Shown here: in pieces, positions 1 to 9,464 of the stretch
How positions within the stretch are numbered: the stretch's first letter is position 1
Layout: every line of letters starts with the position of its first letter
Virus record (IMG/VR): IMGVR_UViG_3300028025_002789
Location: 1-64,000 of that record
DNA: 64,000 bases
Source of the DNA: a virus
Reading direction: 5' to 3' (one strand)
Program-made: the position numbers and the translations under genes
Notes under the pieces: model-generated
Databases searched by the model: none
What the model was told of the DNA's origin: nothing
What the model saw: only the letters and a program-made list of their open reading frames with translations

Positions 1-685
1 CTTTACCGTAGACACATAGGCCACATGATACGCAGGCGGAACCAGCGGAAGAAATAAGCGGAATACTCTTCATATTCTCAGGACACTTAGCCCCAGGCTT
101 ACCCGTTAATTCTTTCATAGTACTTTCAGTAACAGCGAATGTCTTGCCTAGATAAGCCAGGCGGACACCGTCATTAAGTTTTAAATCATGAGCAATAGTT
201 TTATTCTCATCATCCGTTGAATAATAAAGTGATAGATTAGAAATATCTTTAAGGATTAATGCTGCAGACTTAACTCGTGTATATACCCAAAATTGAATAT
301 CTGAATTCTGATCAATCACAGTCTTCCACGCATATGCGTACGTGTCATTAAAGAAATCTCCGTCCCAGTGGATACGGAATAATAACTTAGCATTGCGCTT
401 CTCGCAATCCTTGCGAAAGTCTGCAATCATAGATTCAATTAAGTTAACCATGGTAGGACCGTCGGCGTCCTTTAATAAATTCCAATTATGCATGAGCACA
501 TTGCGAACGCCCTTATATACTTTTTCTAACTTACCCGCATAACATACGCTTTCGCAAATACTAGTAGCGCCAGGGCATGAGAATGCTTTACCTGCAGGCA
601 GGCCAAAGGTATTAGCAATTGTAGGAGTTTTACCGTTAGGGGAAACGGCATTCGTTACTTTACGGTCCATTGAGCGCTTTAACAT
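1..685 (-). CDS. Gp88-like Cys-rich (putative Fe-S) phage protein, runs off the left edge; leaderless
   Basis: Not in ORF track. Manual translation MLKRSMDRKV...SCPGATSICESVCYAG...FRIHWDGDF...FWVYTR...CVSCGLC; ATG lies 7 nt after TATAAT. Confidence 0.8.
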   Translation of the reverse strand, partial: MLKRSMDRKVTNAVSPNGKTPTIANTFGLPAGKAFSCPGATSICESVCYAGKLEKVYKGVRNVLMHNWNLLKDADGPTMVNLIESMIADFRKDCEKRNAKLLFRIHWDGDFFNDTYAYAWKTVIDQNSDIQFWVYTRVKSAALILKDISNLSLYYSTDDENKTIAHDLKLNDGVRLAYLGKTFAVTESTMKELTGKPGAKCPENMKSIPLISSAGSACVSCGLCVYGK

Positions 686-692
686 GGGCCCA

Positions 693-714
693 ATTATAGC
701 AGGAGACACTGACA
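693..714 (-). promoter_or_regulatory. PafBC/RecA-NDp-type promoter
   Basis: TGTCAG-tgtctcctgc-TATAAT. Confidence 0.8.
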
Positions 715-858
715 TTATAAGTCCCCCATTTCTGCATCCGCCATGCGTGACATCATGCGCCACATATCTTGCTTAATAGCATCGTCGGAACCATAGAGAG
801 ATCCATCGCAATCATTCATTTCATGACCGCAGCAAGGAAAATCTTCGCAAGTATTCAT
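715..858 (-). CDS. small Cys-rich hypothetical protein (CEDFPCCGH)
   Basis: Start moved to ATG 858, downstream of promoter 887-908 and SD CGAAAGG; 47 aa. Confidence 0.7.
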   Translation of the reverse strand: MNTCEDFPCCGHEMNDCDGSLYGSDDAIKQDMWRMMSRMADAEMGDL

Positions 859-886
859 TAGTTGACCTTTCGTTGGAGAGGTTGAA

Positions 887-908
887 AGTATAACAGATCT
901 AACTGACA
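887..908 (-). promoter_or_regulatory. PafBC/RecA-NDp-type promoter
   Basis: TGTCAG-ttagatctgt-TATACT; also TTGGAA 17 bp upstream of the -10. Confidence 0.8.
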
Positions 909-947
909 TTTCCAATACGACACGCCGATTTCAGGGCATTATTTATA

Positions 948-963
948 TGTGTCTTAAATCACA
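948..963. promoter_or_regulatory. CRP/GlxR-like box
   Basis: TGTGT-N6-TCACA. Confidence 0.6.
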
Positions 964-967
964 AAAT

Positions 968-989
968 GCCCCCTCACATCTGTGGGCGC
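968..989. repeat. GCCCCCNCA-N3/4-CTGTGGGCGC repeat, copy 1 of 4
   Basis: gccccctcacatctgtgggcgc; other copies at 3413, 4569, 5110. Confidence 0.8.
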
Positions 990-1006
990 ATTTGTCGATA
1001 AAAGGG

Positions 1007-1034
1007 AAATGGGGCGGGAAGAACCCGCCCCAAG
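1007..1034 (-). terminator. intrinsic terminator
   Basis: GGGGCGGG-ttctt-CCCGCCCC-attt just downstream of CDS 1038..1295. Confidence 0.65.
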
Positions 1035-1037
1035 CCT

Positions 1038-1295
1038 TTAATTTATACTGATACTTAGTTTATTAGGTATAAGAGATTTAACAAACTGTATAGTTTCCAT
1101 TGGTAGGAAAATTGCGGTTGTCTTTTTCTTTTTTAGATTATCAAACACAAACGCTTTTACATTTCCGTCAAACCTTTTTAGATTTGAGAACACAATCTCT
1201 CTTAGGTATTCTTGGTCAACACCTTGTTCAGAGTAGATAGTTAAATCATTTGACTTTACTTCGTCATAGATTTCAATACGAAATCTTTCTGCCAT
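1038..1295 (-). CDS. hypothetical protein
   Basis: ORF with AAAGGAAAG SD. Confidence 0.75.
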   Translation of the reverse strand: MAERFRIEIYDEVKSNDLTIYSEQGVDQEYLREIVFSNLKRFDGNVKAFVFDNLKKKKTTAIFLPMETIQFVKSLIPNKLSISIN

Positions 1296-1323
1296 TGTCT
1301 TTCCTTTGTTAGTAGGGATAGGA

Positions 1324-1362
1324 AGTATAACATAGGGGGCTAGATTTTGTCTAGCCCCCTAT
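1324..1362 (-). terminator. hairpin overlapping a TAGACA-18-TATACT promoter
   Basis: ATAGGGGGCTAGA-ttttg-TCTAGCCCCCTAT inverted repeat. Confidence 0.55.
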
Positions 1363-1366
1363 AAGA

Positions 1367-1549
1367 TTATGCGCCGATTTTTACCATAGCCCAACGCAAA
1401 CCATTTTCTGTATTAAGCCCCAGCTTTGTTAATGTAGGGCGAATAGAAATGATCTCGCTGATTGTGCCAGTAATGCCAGACTTGCCTGTGGTGAATACAT
1501 CGCCTTTACGATAGAAGCGACCCTTAGCGGTATCTAGAATTGGTGACAT
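1367..1549 (-). CDS. small beta-rich (SH3-like) hypothetical protein
   Basis: ORF with SD; similar to 2165..2320. Confidence 0.7.
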   Translation of the reverse strand: MSPILDTAKGRFYRKGDVFTTGKSGITGTISEIISIRPTLTKLGLNTENGLRWAMVKIGA

Positions 1550-1577
1550 TTTATTTCCTTTCGTTAGTTGGTGTGTG

Positions 1578-1604
1578 TGAGCAGTTTTTAGACTTGCTCA
1601 GGTC
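1578..1604 (-). other. predicted H-type RNA pseudoknot, intergenic
   Basis: GAC-C-UGAGCA-A-GUC-UAAAAAC-UGCUCA. Confidence 0.5.
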
Positions 1605-1616
1605 GTTGCTTGTTAT

Positions 1617-2039
1617 TTATAGATAACGAGCAATAGCGTTGTATGTGGAAGCATTTACTGTTTCCTCGTCGGTCATTTTAAGAATACGAATAGCGTTTTC
1701 CATCTCATCTTTCATCTCACGATAAGTGTGCTGATGGATAGTTTCGTAGTCCTTTTCAGGTTCTTTTGGAAAATCTTTCTCATCAACTGTTAGGTCAAAA
1801 TCAACATTGAGAGTTTTGTTCCAAGAACGATAGTTGGTGCGTAGGTTTTCAGCCTTTGAGAATTGACCAATAGCCCACTTCCCAATTTCTTTTTTCCACG
1901 CTTCCATCTTTTTGTTAAACTTTGCCTCGTTTTCATCTTGCTTTGCGTAGTCAGCATTTAGTTGTGCTAACTTTGCTTCTAAGGCTTTAATAACCTTATC
2001 AGTAGCAATTTTTACCTGTATTGCTTTACCTCTAGCCAT
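1617..2039 (-). CDS. hypothetical coiled-coil protein
   Basis: 140-aa ORF, SD CGAAAGGG, own promoter. Confidence 0.85.
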   Translation of the reverse strand: MARGKAIQVKIATDKVIKALEAKLAQLNADYAKQDENEAKFNKKMEAWKKEIGKWAIGQFSKAENLRTNYRSWNKTLNVDFDLTVDEKDFPKEPEKDYETIHQHTYREMKDEMENAIRILKMTDEETVNASTYNAIARYL

Positions 2040-2069
2040 TTGTATTTCCCTTTCGTTGGTTGTTGGAGT

Positions 2070-2091
2070 ATTGTATCAGTTGCCACCGACA
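2070..2091 (-). promoter_or_regulatory. PafBC/RecA-NDp-type promoter
   Basis: TGTCGG-tggcaactga-TACAAT. Confidence 0.85.
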
Positions 2092-2101
2092 CAAATAGTG
2101 T

Positions 2102-2149
2102 GAGAGTTCTTACTTACGACATTGGGCGAGATACTCTCTAAACTGCCCC
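2102..2149 (+). other. predicted RNA pseudoknot, intergenic
   Basis: GAGAGU..GGGCG..ACUCUC-UAAAC-UGCCC. Confidence 0.4.
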
Positions 2150-2164
2150 TGTTTCGTTATTCAG

Positions 2165-2320
2165 TTATTTAGCAGGTGCGCTTGTCCAGCGTTCCTTACC
2201 ATTTACATCAAGCAGGATACGATTTGTTCCGCTAGGGTGGTTATCAACGGCTTTAATAACTCCTGTGATACCGCTTGTTGTAGTTGTGTAGGTTTGACCT
2301 ACCTCTAGTGTTGTGTTCAT
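2165..2320 (-). CDS. small SH3-like hypothetical protein (51 aa)
   Basis: Manual: MNTTLEVGQTYTTTTSGITGVIKAVDNHPSGTNRILLDVNGKERWTSAPAK; SD and promoter present. Confidence 0.75.
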   Translation of the reverse strand: MNTTLEVGQTYTTTTSGITGVIKAVDNHPSGTNRILLDVNGKERWTSAPAK

Positions 2321-2349
2321 TGTGTTTCCTTTCGTTTGGTTATAGCAGT

Positions 2350-2371
2350 ATTATAGTGGATACCACCGACA
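2350..2371 (-). promoter_or_regulatory. PafBC/RecA-NDp-type promoter
   Basis: TGTCGG-tggtatccac-TATAAT. Confidence 0.85.
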
Positions 2372-2399
2372 TTTCCCCTCATTTCGTAGGGGAGTGTCG

Positions 2400-2415
2400 T
2401 GTGAGATACATCACA
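2400..2415. promoter_or_regulatory. CRP/GlxR box (perfect)
   Basis: TGTGA-gataca-TCACA. Confidence 0.75.
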
Positions 2416-2551
2416 AGTATTCGGTTAGGTCGCCGTCCATAATCTCAGATACTGATACGCCTTCGAGTTCGGCGATAGCATCCCATAGTTCAGCTTCGGT
2501 ATAGTTTCCATCAGGATACCAATCAGATAAGATAGAATAAAGATTATTCAT
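2411..2551 (-). CDS. small acidic hypothetical protein (46 aa)
   Basis: Manual: MNNLYSILSDWYPDGNYTEAELWDAIAELEGVSVSEIMDGDLTEYL; SD GGAGG; overlaps upstream stop. Confidence 0.7.
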   Translation of the reverse strand: MNNLYSILSDWYPDGNYTEAELWDAIAELEGVSVSEIMDGDLTEYL

Positions 2552-2819
2552 AGTAGTCCTCCTGTGGTAGCCACGCATCTAGGTGGTGCTGCTCAATAAT
2601 TGCGGAAGCAGGTGCAAACTTACTTCCTCGATAAGATACGCCTTCGGGCATTTCGATCATTTTGTTATAGTCCTCATCATAGTATGCGTCAATAGCATCT
2701 ATGCAAGGTTGCACCATAGATAGCGGAACGGGTGGGTAGTGATTACCCTGCAAGTGATAGCCTATTGCCATCTCTAAATCTAATTCCTCAGATAAACTTA
2801 CTGCTGTGTTGTATCCCAT
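2544..2819 (-). CDS. hypothetical protein (HLQGNHYPP motif)
   Basis: ORF in leftward operon. Confidence 0.8.
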   Translation of the reverse strand: MGYNTAVSLSEELDLEMAIGYHLQGNHYPPVPLSMVQPCIDAIDAYYDEDYNKMIEMPEGVSYRGSKFAPASAIIEQHHLDAWLPQEDYYE

Positions 2820-3095
2820 TTATTCGTTCTCCTCTAAGATAGTTTCTGATAGGTTGTCCATTTCGGCTATTGTATCGCATAGCACCGACATTTCTGATTC
2901 TGTTAGTAATACCTTAGTAATTCCATCGGCTACCTTGCTAGATAGGGCGGCAGAATACATAAATAGATACCTGGCGAATACATCATCAGATAATTCATTT
3001 CTGCGTGTGTGTAATTCACCCGCAAGCCCCATTATCTCATCGTCAAACACGCTATCTTTAGTAACCGATAATAACTCTAATGCAGTAGATAACAT
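2820..3095 (-). CDS. acidic hypothetical protein
   Basis: ORF, translationally coupled. Confidence 0.8.
   Translation of the reverse strand: MLSTALELLSVTKDSVFDDEIMGLAGELHTRRNELSDDVFARYLFMYSAALSSKVADGITKVLLTESEMSVLCDTIAEMDNLSETILEENE
2869..2890 (-). promoter_or_regulatory. PafBC/RecA-NDp-type promoter embedded in a CDS
   Basis: TGTCGG-tgctatgcga-TACAAT, about 50 bp upstream of ATG 2819. Confidence 0.75.
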
Positions 3096-3301
3096 TATTT
3101 AGCCACCTTTAACTTTGCCCAAGAGGTACCTTCATTTAATTCGTTAATAGTTGGTTGGATAATAGGCACTAGATGGTCTTTCAATAAGCCTTCTAGAATA
3201 GCAGTTATTTCATCTTTCCCCAAGGCAAGTAATCGAATTGCGCTAGGGTGTGTTTCGTCAAACTCAGTTACGAATTTGAGATAGTGTTCTACTTTTTTCA
3301 T
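3095..3301 (-). CDS. hypothetical protein
   Basis: Start moved to ATG 3301 (MKKVEH), after SD CGAAAGG and promoter 3331-3352. Confidence 0.75.
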   Translation of the reverse strand: MKKVEHYLKFVTEFDETHPSAIRLLALGKDEITAILEGLLKDHLVPIIQPTINELNEGTSWAKLKVAK

Positions 3302-3330
3302 TTGTAGCCTTTCGTTGTTGGGATGAGAGT

Positions 3331-3352
3331 ATTTTAGCATAGGCTACCGACA
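3331..3352 (-). promoter_or_regulatory. PafBC/RecA-NDp-type promoter
   Basis: TGTCGG-tagcctatgc-TAAAAT. Confidence 0.85.
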
Positions 3353-3379
3353 TTTTTTGCAACACGCCTCAAAATCCAG

Positions 3380-3395
3380 GGTGTTTTATATCACA
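3380..3395. promoter_or_regulatory. CRP/GlxR-like box
   Basis: GGTGT-tttata-TCACA. Confidence 0.5.
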
Positions 3396-3412
3396 CTCTT
3401 AACGACACGCCC

Positions 3413-3434
3413 GACCCCGCACCTCTGTGGGCGC
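3413..3434. repeat. GCCCCCNCA-N3/4-CTGTGGGCGC repeat, copy 2
   Basis: gaccccgcacctctgtgggcgc. Confidence 0.8.
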
Positions 3435-3473
3435 AGCTGGCGATCTTGTCAAATCGCCACGCCGTTTATTTAA

Positions 3474-3662
3474 TTACACACGCCCAAAAATTGTTGTGTA
3501 ATTACTCGCCTCGTGAAATCTCACGACATCAAATCGCTCATTATCTTTAGCAAACATTTCAGCAAAATCATTTACCATTTTAGAAAATAAAGCAGGGTGA
3601 GTTTTATTGCTCGCATACTTTAAAATTTCTGCGGTTGCGATGTAATCTTTTCTAGTCATCAT
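3474..3662 (-). CDS. hypothetical protein (MTRKDY...RFD..RF type)
   Basis: ORF with ATGA coupling. Confidence 0.8.
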   Translation of the reverse strand: MMTRKDYIATAEILKYASNKTHPALFSKMVNDFAEMFAKDNERFDVVRFHEASNYTTIFGRV

Positions 3663-3862
3663 CGTTTTACTACCTTTCCATTTCGGTGAAAAATCTTAGT
3701 GTAACATTTACCGCTAGGGGTAAATAAGTTAATTGTTGAGTATTCATCAGCGAAGCCCCAGTCAATAAACTTAGCAAACTCTTCGTGTGCGTTTAATTCG
3801 TCTGAGTATTCTTTACTCCAATGAATTGCGTTTTCATCATTAGCAACAGTTATCTTATACAT
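3659..3862 (-). CDS. hypothetical protein
   Basis: Start moved to ATG 3862 (MYKITV), coupled to the upstream TAA. Confidence 0.75.
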   Translation of the reverse strand: MYKITVANDENAIHWSKEYSDELNAHEEFAKFIDWGFADEYSTINLFTPSGKCYTKIFHRNGKVVKR

Positions 3863-3993
3863 TAGATACCCCACATTTCTAGAGCGCAATCGCAACTCTC
3901 TACATCATAATTGTTTTCATCGCCAAAGAAAATAAATCCAGCACCGCCACACTCATCGCAAGCGACCCCGATTATTTCTATTAAGTTTCCCAT
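3862..3993 (-). CDS. small Zn-finger-like protein (CDECGGAG...CDC), 43 aa
   Basis: Manual translation; SD CGAAAGG; promoter 4026-4047. Confidence 0.7.
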   Translation of the reverse strand: MGNLIEIIGVACDECGGAGFIFFGDENNYDVESCDCALEMWGI

Positions 3994-4025
3994 TTTAGTT
4001 TTCCTTTCGTGTTTTGTTATTAGTA

Positions 4026-4047
4026 ATTATAGCCTAAGCCACCGACA
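4026..4047 (-). promoter_or_regulatory. PafBC/RecA-NDp-type promoter
   Basis: TGTCGG-tggcttaggc-TATAAT. Confidence 0.85.
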
Positions 4048-4067
4048 ATTTCGGGGAACGACACGCC

Positions 4068-4190
4068 CTAAAGCGCACCTTCCTGAAATAAGCCGATTTC
4101 TAAATCCAGTAATTCTTGCGGGTTGGCTTCGGATAAATCTACCCAGCCAGCACCTTGCTCATCTAATCTAAAAATTTCAATGTATCCCAT
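4068..4190 (-). CDS. small acidic hypothetical protein (40 aa)
   Basis: Manual: MGYIEIFRLDEQGAGWVDLSEANPQELLDLEIGLFQEGAL. Confidence 0.65.
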   Translation of the reverse strand: MGYIEIFRLDEQGAGWVDLSEANPQELLDLEIGLFQEGAL

Positions 4191-4192
4191 TA

Positions 4193-4384
4193 TTATTCAC
4201 CAACCTTTACTGCTATTGTTCGGTAAGTGTATTTACCAGTATTAGATTTAATTTGTACTAAATAACTTTCGGCGTTATCGTACCAAACAGAAGATTTTTC
4301 TGCGGAGATAATTTCACCACGCAAAGTTTTAGAGTTGTAAGTTTTACCAATTAGTAAATCTTGTATTGTGTATAAGTTAGCCAT
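4193..4384 (-). CDS. small beta-rich hypothetical protein
   Basis: ORF, SD CGAAAGG, promoter 4420-4441. Confidence 0.8.
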   Translation of the reverse strand: MANLYTIQDLLIGKTYNSKTLRGEIISAEKSSVWYDNAESYLVQIKSNTGKYTYRTIAVKVGE

Positions 4385-4419
4385 TGTTAGCCACTTCCTT
4401 TCGTTTTCGTTATGCCGTA

Positions 4420-4441
4420 ATTATAGCGGATAGCACCGACA
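4420..4441 (-). promoter_or_regulatory. PafBC/RecA-NDp-type promoter
   Basis: TGTCGG-tgctatccgc-TATAAT. Confidence 0.85.
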
Positions 4442-4490
4442 ATTTTCTACCTACTAGCCAGTAATTCCAAATAATGAGACGCTCAAGCCA

Positions 4491-4506
4491 TGTGATAAAA
4501 CTCACA
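4491..4506. promoter_or_regulatory. CRP/GlxR box (perfect)
   Basis: TGTGA-taaaac-TCACA. Confidence 0.75.
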
Positions 4507-4568
4507 AGATCTCGGGCGTGTCGCAGGATTTTCAGGGCTTTTCTTAAATCGGACATAACAGACAAATT

Positions 4569-4590
4569 GCCCCCGCAGTTCTGTGGGCGC
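4569..4590. repeat. GCCCCCNCA-N3/4-CTGTGGGCGC repeat, copy 3
   Basis: gcccccgcagttctgtgggcgc. Confidence 0.8.
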
Positions 4591-4619
4591 TTTCAGCAGT
4601 TTGTCAAGCTGACACGCCG

Positions 4620-4847
4620 TTACCCTTCATCATATTCTAAAGAAAGCGGGAAGTCATCAGACATTCCCTCATTCATAGCATCTTGATAATCTAAAAGACC
4701 TTGCTCATACATAATTGGATCACAATTAAAAAGAATCTCAGATGCGGTAAAAGTTGAGTAACCAATCTTTACATCTGGATAACATTCGTCAAGCATTGCA
4801 TCATATGCTTCTTTTATTTCAAGAGCGATTTCAAAATCTGTTTTCAT
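4620..4847 (-). CDS. highly acidic hypothetical protein
   Basis: 75 aa with 19 D/E and 3 K. Confidence 0.8.
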   Translation of the reverse strand: MKTDFEIALEIKEAYDAMLDECYPDVKIGYSTFTASEILFNCDPIMYEQGLLDYQDAMNEGMSDDFPLSLEYDEG

Positions 4848-4957
4848 TATTTATTTCCTTTCAATGACTCTGCATAAGCAGGGTCGGAAACTGAGTCCGC
4901 ACCAAACTCCTCGTAGATTTCTAGATAGATTTCATCATAGTATTCGTTATAGTCCAT
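4847..4957 (-). CDS. small acidic hypothetical protein (36 aa)
   Basis: Manual: MDYNEYYDEIYLEIYEEFGADSVSDPAYAESLKGNK; TAATG coupling. Confidence 0.65.
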   Translation of the reverse strand: MDYNEYYDEIYLEIYEEFGADSVSDPAYAESLKGNK

Positions 4958-4993
4958 AAGTTGAACCAACCTTTCTTTATCTTGATACTAAGT

Positions 4994-5015
4994 ATCCTAT
5001 CATAGACCACTGACA
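4994..5015 (-). promoter_or_regulatory. PafBC/RecA-NDp-type promoter
   Basis: TGTCAG-tggtctatga-TAGGAT. Confidence 0.8.
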
Positions 5016-5053
5016 TTTTGACTCATTTTTCGGGTGTGTCGGGAAAGTATTTT

Positions 5054-5069
5054 TGTGAATTGCGCCACA
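5054..5069. promoter_or_regulatory. CRP/GlxR-like box
   Basis: TGTGA-attgcg-CCACA. Confidence 0.6.
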
Positions 5070-5109
5070 TTTCTAGGGTGTTTCTTAAATCGGACATAAG
5101 GTACAAAAT

Positions 5110-5132
5110 GCCCCCACAAAAGCTGTGGGCGC
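5110..5132. repeat. GCCCCCNCA-N3/4-CTGTGGGCGC repeat, copy 4
   Basis: gcccccacaaaagctgtgggcgc. Confidence 0.8.
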
Positions 5133-5162
5133 TATCGCCTATTGTCAAGGCGACACGCCGTG

Positions 5163-5303
5163 CTATCTACCGAAAGTATAGTGAGTTAGCACACACTCCC
5201 TGCCCTCTATGGTTTGCTTACAGTCACCATAGTGCGGGGTAGAGAACAGAGAGAATACTAGTATGCCTACTAGTAACGATACATAACCTATCAGGGCTTT
5301 CAT
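5163..5303 (-). CDS. small membrane/secreted protein (46 aa)
   Basis: Manual: MKALIGYVSLLVGILVFSLFSTPHYGDCKQTIEGRECVLTHYTFGR. Confidence 0.6.
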   Translation of the reverse strand: MKALIGYVSLLVGILVFSLFSTPHYGDCKQTIEGRECVLTHYTFGR

Positions 5304-5458
5304 TACTTATTCTTCTTTCTCTTATAGATCTTATAGCCTACTACTAGTAAGGCGGTGGCAATGATGGTGTGCCAAGGTAGATAGATAGCCCCTAAGAAAC
5401 TATCTAACTCTATACCATAGTCACTAGTTATATATAACTCTAGTCCGTCTGTAATCAT
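5303..5458 (-). CDS. small membrane protein (51 aa)
   Basis: Manual: MITDGLELY...IYLPWHTIIATALLVVGYKIYKRKKNK; TAATG coupling. Confidence 0.65.
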   Translation of the reverse strand: MITDGLELYITSDYGIELDSFLGAIYLPWHTIIATALLVVGYKIYKRKKNK

Positions 5459-5643
5459 TACTTATCTCCAAACATGTTAAAGACCTCATCTATTTGGTCA
5501 TCTGTTAAGTGGTCAATCTCGATAGCCTTAGAGAAACCGAATACATCTTCTTCATCTGTTATCTCTTGCTCTGCTAATTCTTCATCTAAGTAGGTGTATG
5601 CGTCTGCTACATCTGCTTGAATAGTATCCCATTTAGTCATCAT
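5458..5643 (-). CDS. highly acidic hypothetical protein
   Basis: 61 aa with 19 D/E and 3 K. Confidence 0.8.
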   Translation of the reverse strand: MMTKWDTIQADVADAYTYLDEELAEQEITDEEDVFGFSKAIEIDHLTDDQIDEVFNMFGDK

Positions 5644-5810
5644 TACTTAGTCACCTTTATCTCTTGAATGTTAGCGGAAAACTTTTGAGCCTTACCTATT
5701 GCGCTATCGTTTAACTCTGCTACTACTTTATCAACATCTTTAATGTTAGTAGCGATGTTACCAATAGACAATAGGCGAGAGCCTTGCCATAGTGCGTATG
5801 TTATAGTCAT
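5643..5810 (-). CDS. hypothetical protein (55 aa)
   Basis: Manual: MTITYALWQGSRLLSIGNIATNIKDVDKVVAELNDSAIGKAQKFSANIQEIKVTK. Confidence 0.7.
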   Translation of the reverse strand: MTITYALWQGSRLLSIGNIATNIKDVDKVVAELNDSAIGKAQKFSANIQEIKVTK

Positions 5811-5845
5811 TTACTGTTCTTCTTTCTCTAGTTTGTTATAGTGGA

Positions 5846-5867
5846 ATAGTAGCGGATAGGGCAGACA
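5846..5867 (-). promoter_or_regulatory. PafBC/RecA-NDp-type promoter (variant)
   Basis: TGTCTG-ccctatccgc-TACTAT. Confidence 0.6.
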
Positions 5868-5889
5868 ATTACAAGCGACACGCTGTCGC

Positions 5890-6042
5890 TTATTCTGTGA
5901 CCTTAGTCACAGTAGGCAAGGAGATTAGATAGCGTAGGACACGCTTTCTATCTGCTACGGATAGCCCGTAGGTAGAGGTAACGCCACCGTTACGGTAGTC
6001 GTTCTCTATTTTCTCTAATAGAGTTTCTGTTAGTGTAGTCAT
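5890..6042 (-). CDS. hypothetical protein (50 aa), first gene of the leftward array
   Basis: Manual: MTTLTETLLEKIENDYRNGGVTSTYGLSVADRKRVLRYLISLPTVTKVTE; SD GAAAGGTGG. Confidence 0.65.
   Translation of the reverse strand: MTTLTETLLEKIENDYRNGGVTSTYGLSVADRKRVLRYLISLPTVTKVTE
5896..5911. promoter_or_regulatory. CRP/GlxR box (perfect)
   Basis: TGTGA-ccttag-TCACA. Confidence 0.75.
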
Positions 6043-6098
6043 TTTATGACCACCTTTCTTTTTTTAAGATTAACTATTTGTTAATTGCTTATAGTATA

Positions 6099-6120
6099 AG
6101 CCTAGCAGGGGGGACTGACA
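6099..6120 (-). promoter_or_regulatory. PafBC/RecA-NDp-type promoter
   Basis: TGTCAG-tcccccctgc-TAGGCT. Confidence 0.75.
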
Positions 6121-6177
6121 TTTTCAAGTCTCAAATCGGACATGTCGGACATTTTGTAAGTTAATTTTATAAATTAG

Positions 6178-6193
6178 CGTGAGATAGGTCACA
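6178..6193. promoter_or_regulatory. CRP/GlxR-like box
   Basis: CGTGA-gatagg-TCACA. Confidence 0.65.
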
Positions 6194-6287
6194 TTTATGG
6201 TCGCTCTATCCCATTTGTCCGTTTTTATAGATACGTGTATCGTACAAATAAAACCTATATTAACATTTTGGTAAATCTAAAAAATAG

Positions 6288-6430: not shown

Positions 6431-6503
6431 GCTCTTATAGCCCAATGGCAGAGGCATACGACTTAAAATCGTACAAGTGTTGGTTCGAGTCCAACTAGGA
6501 GCA
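6431..6503 (+). tRNA. tRNA-Leu(TAA), short variable arm
   Basis: Cloverleaf; anticodon arm TACGA-cttaaaa-TCGTA; GGTTCGAGTCC. Confidence 0.88.
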
Positions 6504-6504
6504 C

Positions 6505-6578
6505 GGAGACATAGCTTAGTTGGTTAAAGCCCCAAACTCATAATTTGGTAATCGTAGGTTCGAGTCCTACTGTCTCTA
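6505..6578 (+). tRNA. tRNA-CAT (elongator Met or Ile2)
   Basis: Cloverleaf; CCAAA-ctcataa-TTTGG. Confidence 0.9.
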
Positions 6579-6598
6579 CAGATATTTTTCAAAAGCTA

Positions 6599-8168: not shown

Positions 8169-8412
8169 ATTGGGAGATTCCCTTCTCCCGCCCGTTTCTG
8201 CCTTGATCGACCCGTAGGGTCATAATATGGCTAAAAGTGGCTTAGAGGGCCTACAGAGCAATTTAGAGGCATATTCTGGCAAATGGGGTAAAGAGAGAAT
8301 GTCTCTTCTCGCCGAAGCACTTTTTTCGGGCGCACTTTTAAATCGCACTATATAAGATTAATTATAGTAGACATTGCCATGTCCGCCGCAAAATAGTATA
8401 ATGATAATACGT

Positions 8413-8483
8413 TTCAGGTTCGTCTAATGGTCGGACCTCTGCCTCCGAAGCAGATAATGTTGGTTCGATTCCCGCACCTGAAG
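8413..8483 (+). tRNA. tRNA-Arg(CCG)
   Basis: TCTGC-ctccgaa-GCAGA; acceptor TTCAGGT/ACCTGAA; T-stem mismatch. Confidence 0.8.
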
Positions 8484-8490
8484 CCCACAT

Positions 8491-8563
8491 TGACCCATAG
8501 CTCAGTCGGTAGAGCGCAGAGCTGTTAACTCTGATGTCCCAGGATCGAGGCCTGGTGGGTCAG
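8491..8563 (+). tRNA. tRNA-Asn(GTT)
   Basis: CAGAG-ctgttaa-CTCTG; atypical T-loop ATCGAGG. Confidence 0.88.
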
Positions 8564-8630
8564 CGTAAAGCATAGATACCTTCTATGCGGAATAAGTAAA
8601 CTCAGACAGAGTTTATATTATGGAGGTAAT

Positions 8631-9311: not shown

Positions 9312-9385
9312 GCGGATGTTACATAATGGTAGTGTCTCTGCCTTCCAAGCAGATAGTGAGAGTTCGATTCTCTTCATCCGCTCCA
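9312..9385 (+). tRNA. tRNA-Gly(TCC) with encoded CCA
   Basis: TCTGC-cttccaa-GCAGA; 3' end TCCA. Confidence 0.9.
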
Positions 9386-9386
9386 C

Positions 9387-9458
9387 ATCTCTATAGCTCA
9401 GTGGAAGAGCAACAGGTTTCTACCCTGTGTGTCGGGAGTTCGAATCTCTCTAGGGATA
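9387..9458 (+). tRNA. tRNA-Arg(TCT)
   Basis: ACAGG-tttctac-CCTGT. Confidence 0.88.
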
Positions 9459-9464
9459 CAAAGT

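Follow-up and report, generated by a model that had tools for sequence, protein, structure and literature searches.

The window analyzed here comprises the first 64,000 nucleotides of a 97,728-base viral contig (IMG/VR record IMGVR_UViG_3300028025_002789), which is estimated to be 86% complete. This uncultured lake phage has a GC content of 37% and is an actinophage, as it carries a WhiB gene and a portal about 60% identical to Streptomyces phage portals. Phages of this group probably infect streamlined, hard-to-grow freshwater actinobacteria. Near the left end of the contig lies a leftward block of small genes of unassigned function, and the size and position of these genes suggest that they are expressed early.

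Within 693-6120 the minus strand contains 11 PafBC-type promoters (TGTCRGTG-N8-TAnnnT; GTC lies near -26, and a -35 hexamer is lacking), and the plus strand contains none (Table 1). The same orientation bias was found in related loci, with 1,057 promoters pointing forward and 2 in reverse; there the promoters take the form aaaTGTCRGTgg-N4-tGnTAnAAT. Two streamlined actinobacteria (G095 and G140) have recA promoters, TGTCAGTGG-N4-TGCTACCTT, of the same form as the phage promoters. PafB contacts positions -23 to -28 (PMC8635444), and WYL proteins are encoded in 150 of the 151 actinobacterial genomes of the class. PafBC would be the expected reader of the phage promoters. With its -10 so close to an ATG of the phrog_1392 gene, the promoter at 693-714 probably yields a leaderless transcript; relatives of this ORF align only from about residue 17-28 onward.

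Table 1. Predicted CRP-type boxes and PafBC-type promoters in the small-gene block; box centers are given relative to the linked promoter
Feature	Coordinates	Strand	Sequence	Remarks
CRP-type box, 1 mismatch	948..963		TGTGATTTAAGACACA (minus-strand reading)	center -75.5 of promoter 887-908
CRP-type box, perfect	2400..2415		TGTGAGATACATCACA	center -64.5 of promoter 2350-2371
Degenerate box, 2 mismatches	3380..3395		TGTGATATAAAACACC (minus-strand reading)	center -63.5 of promoter 3331-3352
CRP-type box, perfect	4491..4506		TGTGATAAAACTCACA	center -85.5 of promoter 4420-4441
CRP-type box, 1 mismatch	5054..5069		TGTGAATTGCGCCACA	center -74.5 of promoter 4994-5015
CRP-type box, perfect	5896..5911		TGTGACCTTAGTCACA	center -64.5 of weak promoter variant 5846-5867
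CRP-type box, 1 mismatch	6178..6193		CGTGAGATAGGTCACA	center -93.5 of promoter 6099-6120
Possible eighth box, degenerate, 2 mismatches	2099..2114			center -43.5 of promoter 2070-2091; weak evidence
Degenerate box, 2 mismatches, second context	5180..5195			31 nt upstream of GGCGTGTCG..TTGACA hairpin and terminator hairpin; not adjoining a promoter
PafBC-type promoter	693..714	-		no box; -10 lies 7 nt before an ATG of phrog_1392 gene
PafBC-type promoter	887..908	-	TGTCAGTT-N8-TATACT	profile score 24
PafBC-type promoter	2070..2091	-		no good box (just the 2-mismatch site at 2099)
PafBC-type promoter	2350..2371	-	TGTCGGTG-N8-TATAAT
PafBC-type promoter	2869..2890	-		no box; inside coding sequence
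PafBC-type promoter	3331..3352	-	TGTCGGTA-N8-TAAAAT
PafBC-type promoter	4026..4047	-		no box
PafBC-type promoter	4420..4441	-	TGTCGGTG-N8-TATAAT
PafBC-type promoter	4994..5015	-	TGTCAGTG-N8-TAGGAT
Weak PafBC-type promoter variant	5846..5867	-	TGTCTGCC-N8-TACTAT	linked to the box at 5896; profile score 12
PafBC-type promoter	6099..6120	-	TGTCAGTC-N8-TAGGCT	outermost of the block

Seven boxes built on the inverted repeat TGTGA-N6-TCACA precede promoters of this block, as a first-pass annotation of the sequence had proposed. The three copies that it listed as perfect (2400, 4491, and 5896) are so, compared with 0.12 expected, and three or more were obtained in 0 of 100 shuffles. The copies at 948, 5054, and 6178 depart from the repeat at one position and that at 3380 at two, again as claimed. 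The three perfect and three one-mismatch sites of the window are also the only boxes in the entire contig with no more than one mismatch, and all six lie inside 948-6193, where 0.24 were expected and the maximum in 300 resamplings was 2. That annotation had named a similar density elsewhere in the genome as an observation that would count against it; the other 91.4 kb contained 0 such boxes, where about 3.5 would be expected from the difference between 3.7 for the full contig and 0.24 for the arm.

Two-mismatch sites showed no excess over the entire window (25 versus 35 expected). The box at 3380 is thus counted only because two related loci (L009 and L013) have a one-mismatch box, TGTGATATAAATCACC, at the equivalent position. 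Relatives also carry boxes at -84.5/-85.5 of the promoter corresponding to 4420-4441 (family 0) and at -94.5 of that corresponding to 6099-6120, and the box at 948 recurs in a locus that is 97% identical (L005). The possible eighth box, at 2099, is centered close to -44.5, a position in use among relatives. The box-linked promoters other than 5846-5867 have family-profile scores of 24 to 32, versus 12 for that variant. Two of the boxes overlap other features: that at 948 the T-tract following a GC hairpin (968-989), and that at 2400 the stop codon of gene 2411-2578(-), which lies upstream.

The motif was evaluated across 1.25 Mb of related phage sequence, comprising 80 IMG/VR loci, with a reversed control. 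Perfect boxes numbered 333 versus 0 in the control, and at the one-mismatch level the counts were 652 and 32. The spacer was strictly N6: this length gave the 333 matches, and no other spacer from N2 to N10 gave more than 3. The resulting logo is symmetric, TGTGA-K-n-W-W-n-M-TCACA, with flanks devoid of information; T (0.56) and G (0.29) prevail at position 6, where A is rare (0.01), position 11 favors A (0.61) over T (0.03), and positions 8 and 9 favor T (0.53) and A (0.48), respectively. It equals the CRP/GlxR consensus at all ten positions of the core, in the preferences at positions 6 and 11 (T and A in Escherichia coli CRP), and in the central TA, which is characteristic of GlxR (consensus TGTGANNTANNTCACA; PMC4254451). 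Sequence, symmetry, and strict spacing thus bear out the earlier assignment to the CRP family (Crp/GlxR).

The boxes are confined to the PafBC-type promoter block. Among 800 unique promoters of the related loci, 369 have exactly one box, and no box center falls between -42 and +10. In one family of promoters (family 17), all 19 members have a box whose half-sites are 97% conserved, compared with 49% for the flanks. A second context accounts for 41 boxes (approximately 9%), which have no adjoining promoter but a hairpin element 20, 21, or 31 nt downstream. The phage lineage is large, and its members are abundant in metagenomes from lakes: a flanking gene alone retrieves at least 596 IMG/VR loci.

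The distances between boxes and promoters are helically phased. When the first T of the linked -10 is set at -12, so that start positions are assumed with an error of at least 1 bp, the seven centers (Table 1) agree exactly with those calculated in the first-pass annotation. These seven alone give R = 0.89 at 10 bp (Rayleigh p of about 0.004). In the relatives, box centers peak at -44.5, -54.5, -64.5, -74.5, -84.5, and -94.5, and about 400 unique boxes have a best period of 10 to 10.25 bp (R = 0.65). The signal remained very strong across the 80 loci when each downstream-gene family was counted once by its modal position (n = 54; R = 0.70 at 10.25 bp; p of about 2e-12), in full accord with the proposed steps of about 10 bp on one face of the helix. 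Within families the box is conserved but shifts by whole turns; in family 2 it is found at -54.5, -64.5, -74.5, and -84.5. An exception of half a turn is a group at -69.5, on the opposite face; most of its members belong to orthologues of gene 3095-3340(-) of the window.

These features suggest that a host cAMP-receptor-type regulator helps control the small genes. On balance, we favor an explanation in which the boxes are predicted CRP-family dimer sites wired to PafBC-type promoters. Each box would bind a symmetric CRP-family dimer, most likely the single Crp/GlxR orthologue of the host. About half of the PafBC-type promoters that drive the leftward block have one such site upstream. It is never placed in the core promoter, and its distance from the -10 is nearly always a whole number of helical turns. 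Because of this spacing, the bound dimer would approach RNA polymerase, or PafBC bound at -28 to -21, always from the same side of the helix, and it may act in the manner of a class I-type activator. Both Crp as the binder and activation as the effect are what we infer from the sequence.

The domains HTH_Crp_2, cNMP_binding, and WYL had no match in the phage contig, and tblastn with a host-type Crp retrieved nothing from the phage genome or the 80 loci. A host factor is therefore the simplest binder. Each of five streamlined actinobacterial genomes encodes a single Crp of 230 to 232 amino acids with the recognition helix RETVNKAL. The class III adenylate cyclase domain PF00211, the one cyclase class searched for, had no match in these five genomes, which are of the same class and may not include the host. 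This weakens the proposal that early transcription reads host cAMP or carbon status. The first-pass interpretation is partly supported: the consensus, confinement to the promoter block, phasing, and actinophage origin stood, and the fit to E. coli class I geometry was weakened by an offset of about 3 bp and by the group at -69.5.

The boxes might instead be read by a dimeric protein other than host Crp, such as the product of a small phage gene, a protein coinjected with the DNA, or another host regulator, which would turn expression of the block on or off in the course of infection. A 5-N6-5 palindrome could evolve as the target of any symmetric helix-turn-helix dimer, the 20 or so small ORFs of the arm have no recognizable domain (none matched Pfam), and part of the contig is missing. 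In addition, the streamlined genomes show no genome-wide box excess of their own (9 to 19 versus 8 to 15 in the control; their GC content is 49 to 58%, and they may not be the host). We nevertheless consider such a protein unlikely: it would have to share the CRP/GlxR preference at every informative position of the logo, no Crp-like phage sequence was found in the genome or the 80 loci, and the arm ORFs, mostly 40 to 90 amino acids long, are small for a dimeric regulator with such a footprint.

Host Crp could also bind the boxes to an end other than class I activation, namely, its titration off host promoters, repression or insulation, or modulation of the terminator hairpins. Many sites of consensus strength could titrate Crp as phage DNA replicates, given a box density of approximately 1 per kb in the arm versus approximately 0.01 per kb in the streamlined genomes, and up to 8 perfect boxes per phage locus versus 0 to 1 per host-type genome. 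Activator-dependent promoters are usually weak, yet those with a box are not weaker than the others (median profile scores of 26.9 with a box and 25.9 without). The 41 boxes beside a hairpin element instead of a promoter and the group at -69.5 also fit such roles. However, the strict phasing would be superfluous for sites that act purely as decoys, and no box overlaps the core promoter, where steric repressors normally bind. A role for Crp other than activation is, in our judgment, distinctly unlikely. It is highly improbable that the boxes are not protein sites at all and came about through duplication of intergenic cassettes, at recombination boundaries, or as restriction-type palindromes: the intergenic regions are indeed made of repeated parts (GACACGCC and ATGTCCGA repeats and twin hairpins), but the half-sites are nearly invariant beside uninformative flanks, the boxes precede 54 unrelated gene families, they move by whole turns within families with a strictly N6 spacer, and restriction sites are usually depleted in phages, not enriched as the boxes are.

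The preferred reading, CRP-family sites wired to PafBC-type promoters, can be extended to a model that is possible, if somewhat doubtful. Here, the promoters would be two-input devices without a counterpart in the sampled host genomes, each made of a PafBC core and a phased Crp dimer. The PafBC-type sigma-adaptation core would fire when entry or replication of phage DNA exposes single-stranded DNA. The dimer would contact the complex of PafBC and RNA polymerase from upstream and set the output by the physiological state of the host.

If the CRP-family reading is true, about half of the promoters of the small-gene block join a site for PafBC, a DNA-damage switch of the host, to one for Crp, a global regulator of its metabolism. 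They would then offer a specific and testable model of the way in which a lytic-type phage senses the state of its host as infection begins. The spacing series from -44.5 to -94.5, together with the half-turn position at -69.5, is a natural resource for studying an upstream activator against a sigma-adapted polymerase. The two-input model, if true, would provide the first example in which a classical class I activator acts together with a sigma adaptor, on a phage-made promoter class widespread in lakes. Our literature search found no published description of phased CRP-type boxes on such phage promoters.

Among known systems, one close likeness is to class I CRP-dependent promoters of E. coli, of which lac P1 is the archetype and in which CAP is centered at -61.5, -71.5, -82.5, or -92.5. 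These share TGTGA-N6-TCACA, carry their one site outside the core promoter, on its upstream side, and likewise allow positions one turn apart, implying a face-specific contact with the transcription complex. The phage boxes, apart from the -69.5 group, also lie upstream on one helix face in one-turn steps. Their series does not coincide with that of E. coli: it includes -54.5 and runs approximately 3 bp further upstream, a difference to be read against the uncertainty of at least 1 bp in the assumed starts. Class I promoters have a weak core that needs the activator, which contacts the alpha C-terminal domain; such a weak core is not seen either, as box-bearing phage promoters score slightly higher than the rest, and the phage core has a TGTCRGTG element at -28 to -21 instead of a -35 hexamer.

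Actinobacterial Crp/GlxR regulons are exemplified by those of Corynebacterium glutamicum GlxR and Mycobacterium tuberculosis Crp (Rv3676). The phage boxes share the GlxR consensus, including the central T/A preference, and differ from these regulons in being phage borne, of consensus strength, and densely spaced. The sampled genomes are also essentially without the composite of box and PafBC-type promoter (1 match in 151 actinobacterial genomes versus 129 in the phage loci), and neither recA promoter examined (G095 and G140) has a box. The core itself resembles PafBC-dependent (RecA-NDp) promoters, which, as described in the available part of PMC8635444, have the same TGTCRGTG at -28 to -21 with a conserved GTC, no -35 hexamer, and the same canonical -10 eight bases downstream. 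An upstream coactivator site is not described in that part of the report. The phage promoters go beyond this core in having the predicted Crp site, an A-tract that precedes the TGTCRGTG element, and a TG that extends the -10.

The window covers the leading 64 kb of an IMG/VR virus contig of 97,728 bases (GC 37%; completeness estimate 86%). Judged from its genes, the phage is an actinophage, since it carries a WhiB gene, its portal shares ~60% identity with portals of Streptomyces phages placed in Stanwilliamsviridae, and its phrog_1392 gene also occurs in phages of Mycobacterium and Streptomyces. A high-identity DNA search against phages gave no match, and a distant one matched only short gene stretches of Streptomyces and Mycobacterium phages. 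Bases 1-6200 hold ~20 small ORFs, all on the minus strand, in which no Pfam domain was found. Ahead of them lie 11 PafBC-type promoters (TGTCRGTG-N8-TAnnnT, lacking a -35 hexamer), 11 of 11 on the minus strand. The small-gene arm of the cultured relative, Streptomyces phage Muntaha, contains neither this motif nor the boxes described below; thus, the architecture does not extend to the family Stanwilliamsviridae as a whole. A set of tRNA genes sits immediately to the right of the divergent control region.

The first-pass annotation had reported three perfect CRP-type palindromes (boxes), TGTGA-N6-TCACA, and four imperfect ones in the arm (948-6193 for box counts), helically phased upstream of these promoters. 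All seven were recovered. Three perfect boxes compare with 0.12 expected, and three or more occurred in 0 of 100 shuffles. Box centers, for which the leading T of the linked -10 was numbered -12, were reproduced exactly, and for the seven boxes alone the phasing was R = 0.89 at 10 bp (p ~0.004). Box density elsewhere had been set beforehand as a refuting test: at one mismatch or fewer, the arm contains 6 boxes (0.24 expected) and the remaining 91.4 kb contains 0, so that every such box of the whole contig falls within the arm and the test did not refute the first-pass claim. Composition alone predicts ~3.5 boxes in that remainder (contig 6301-97728), and the shortage possibly reflects mild avoidance. 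The idea that the 948 and 3380 boxes are mere fragments of another repeat (ATGTCCGATTTAAGAAACACCC) was rejected; both were retained as weak boxes because relatives have better, in-phase boxes at the same places.

Coordinates of features (window positions unless marked as contig) and centers of boxes relative to the linked promoter
Feature	Position	Box center	Remark
Box	948	-75.5	1 mismatch
Box	2400	-64.5	perfect
Box	3380	-63.5	2 mismatches
Box	4491	-85.5	perfect
Box	5054	-74.5	1 mismatch
Box	5896	-64.5	perfect; linked promoter a weak variant
Box	6178	-93.5	1 mismatch
Promoters without a good box	693, 2070, 2869, 4026
Promoter of phrog_1392 gene	693-714		-10 and ATG within 684-714
Outermost promoter	6099-6120		preceded by doubled repeat ATGTCCGACATGTCCGA
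phrog_1392 gene	2-763(-)		listed start GTG at 763
Twin hairpins (minus strand)	3425-3470, 4581-4618, 5110-5160		simpler form 968-1000
Motif CGACACGCC/GGCGTGTCG	918-5884
Repeat ATGTCCGA(TTTAAGAAA)	4546-4556, 5087-5097, 6133-6152		between terminator and box
Six tRNA genes (plus strand)	6431-6579, 8412-8564, 9312-9459		Leu-TAA, Met, Arg-CCG, Asn, Gly-TCC, Arg-TCT
WhiB gene	contig 83921-84094

Relatives were gathered with the phrog_1392 protein, which marked 596 or more related loci in IMG/VR; the best 80 of these loci (1.25 Mb, 35-40% GC), oriented with the small-gene arm on the plus strand, formed the comparative set. They contained 333 perfect boxes versus 0 for the pattern read backwards, and 652 versus 32 when one mismatch was allowed. 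A promoter-derived profile, aaaTGTCRGTgg-N4-tGnTAnAAT with an extended -10, matched 1,057 promoters forward and 2 in reverse. Of 477 unique boxes, 406 lay within 130 nt upstream of a profile promoter, with centers clustered at -44.5, -54.5, -64.5, -74.5, -84.5 and -94.5 and none between -42 and +10; over the boxes upstream of promoters, the best period was 10-10.25 bp (R = 0.65). Because the loci are related, the first ORFs after each promoter were clustered into 74 families, and one modal box position was taken per family. The phasing was still evident (R = 0.70 at a period of 10.25 bp, n = 54, Rayleigh p ~2e-12). Within families, the box shifts by whole turns: to -54.5, -64.5, -73.5/-74.5 and -84.5 in family 2, and to -74.5 and -84.5 in family 19. 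The boxes are real and lineage-wide.

Not every promoter carries a box. Among 800 unique promoters, 369 had one, 23 had two or three and 408 had none, and in some downstream-gene families a box is never present. A set of ~34 unique boxes, half a turn out of phase, was found at -68.5 to -70.5, most of them at -69.5. The boxes at -69.5, perfect ones included, stand mainly ahead of orthologues of window gene 3095-3340(-), each followed by AAAnCTGCGACACGCC; the window's own promoter for this gene has a degenerate box at -63.5 in place of the -69.5 box.

Several other elements share the arm. The first twin hairpin between gene cassettes has covarying stems (TCGCCT/AGGCGA, CAGC/GCTG and GGCGAT/ATCGCC) and a conserved loop, UUGACAA, with GGCGTGTCG ahead; the second, GCGCCCACAG..UGUGGGGGC followed by AUUUUGU, resembles a terminator. 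Of the 71 boxes in relatives that do not adjoin a promoter, 41 precede a twin-hairpin element by 20, 21 or 31 nt. When up to one mismatch is allowed, the motif CGACACGCC/GGCGTGTCG is present 13 times (1.5 expected), 11 of the 13 being in the arm in both orientations; it often directly precedes the -26 element. The ATGTCCGA repeat is kept in relatives. DnaA-box-like TTATCCACA/TGTGGATAA lies between hairpins and box in many relatives (e.g., 8469, 7386 and 2401 of loci L009, L010 and L013), and TTATCCACA is not enriched in the window (23 versus 22 expected). The phrog_1392 gene probably has a leaderless mRNA, since the -10 is only 7 nt before an ATG; its listed ORF likely starts ~27 codons too early, given that alignments with relatives begin only at residue 17-28.

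When the phage ribonucleotide reductase was used as a host marker, it matched only phage contigs mis-binned into MAGs of unrelated phyla. Via one such MAG, Aquiluna (G001), we reached 151 actinobacterial genomes of the same class. The WYL and composite tallies over this set include seven genomes flagged as unpublished (G007, G015, G024, G030, G032, G036 and G043), and no single one of these seven underlies a claim. WYL proteins were found in 150 of the 151. In two of the genomes, G095 and G140, recA has TGTCAGTGG-N4-TGCTACCTT and a LexA-type box upstream and no CRP box; therefore, such hosts do have a PafBC-type promoter built exactly like those of the phage. In both, GACACACC stands immediately upstream of TGTCAGTGG. 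According to PMC8635444, PafB touches such promoters at -23 to -28, with a GTC triplet as the conserved core; in the phage promoters, this triplet occupies -27 to -25. The phage loci (1.25 Mb) contained the composite GTGA-N6-TCAC-N15-45-TGTCRGTG-N8-TAnnnT 129 times versus once in the 151 genomes, where the sole match was GC-rich and outside an A/T-rich promoter context. The composite thus belongs to the phage. A full-text literature search on PafBC, RecA-NDp or GlxR with phage promoters returned no account of CRP-type boxes on PafBC-type phage promoters.

The best reading of this arrangement is that a host Crp-family dimer would bind one DNA face upstream of the PafBC-type core and touch the transcription complex in the manner of class I activators. 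Box anatomy, phase and conservation are observed; which protein binds, whether it activates, the PafBC dependence of the promoters and the early timing of the block are inferences. The first alternative is a binder other than Crp. The phage contig had no match to HTH_Crp_2, cNMP_binding or WYL domains, and tblastn with a host-type Crp found nothing in the phage genome and 80 loci (best E-value, 7.6). Each of five streamlined genomes (G010, G095, G108, G131 and G140; 1.2-1.4 Mb; GC 49-58% near crp), which may not be the host, encodes one Crp of 230-232 aa with the recognition helix RETVNKAL. The second alternative is Crp titration or repression by the boxes; the same five genomes carry 0-1 perfect boxes each, and 9-19 with at most one mismatch versus 8-15 for the control. 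Box-bearing promoters were considered as the weaker ones, as class I logic predicts, and this was rejected: they are not weaker than box-less ones. The first-pass interpretation is partly supported. Its proposal that early transcription reads host cAMP is the weakest part because no PF00211 adenylate cyclase was found in any of the five streamlined genomes, which may not be the host.

A third alternative, an unlikely one, is a non-protein origin of the boxes. A spacer of strictly six separates the half-sites (333 matches for N6 and at most 3 for any other from N2 to N10), and the logo, T-G-T-G-A-K-n-W-W-n-M-T-C-A-C-A, is symmetric with flanks near background. Conservation figures are partly circular where family members were picked by box presence, and fair footprints come only from families with a box in every member (16, 17 and 19). 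Family 17 is free of this selection bias because all 19 of its promoters have a box; conservation there was 97% in the half-sites, 49% in the flanks and 85% in the -26 element.

By sequence, the logo equals the CRP core. E. coli CRP sites prefer T6/A11, and the phage logo has this preference in common with them. The GlxR consensus is TGTGANNTANNTCACA, and its central TA is also found in the phage logo (PMC4254451). The whole would place the logic of a class I-type CRP site on a phage's sigma-adaptation promoter, with predicted binding and function. A simple class I copy is opposed by three points: the phage series lies ~3 bp further upstream than the E. coli class I positions, -54.5 is used, and promoters with a box are no weaker than those lacking one. 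A geometry shifted relative to E. coli class I is plausible, since PafBC sits between sigma region 4 and DNA (PMC8635444).
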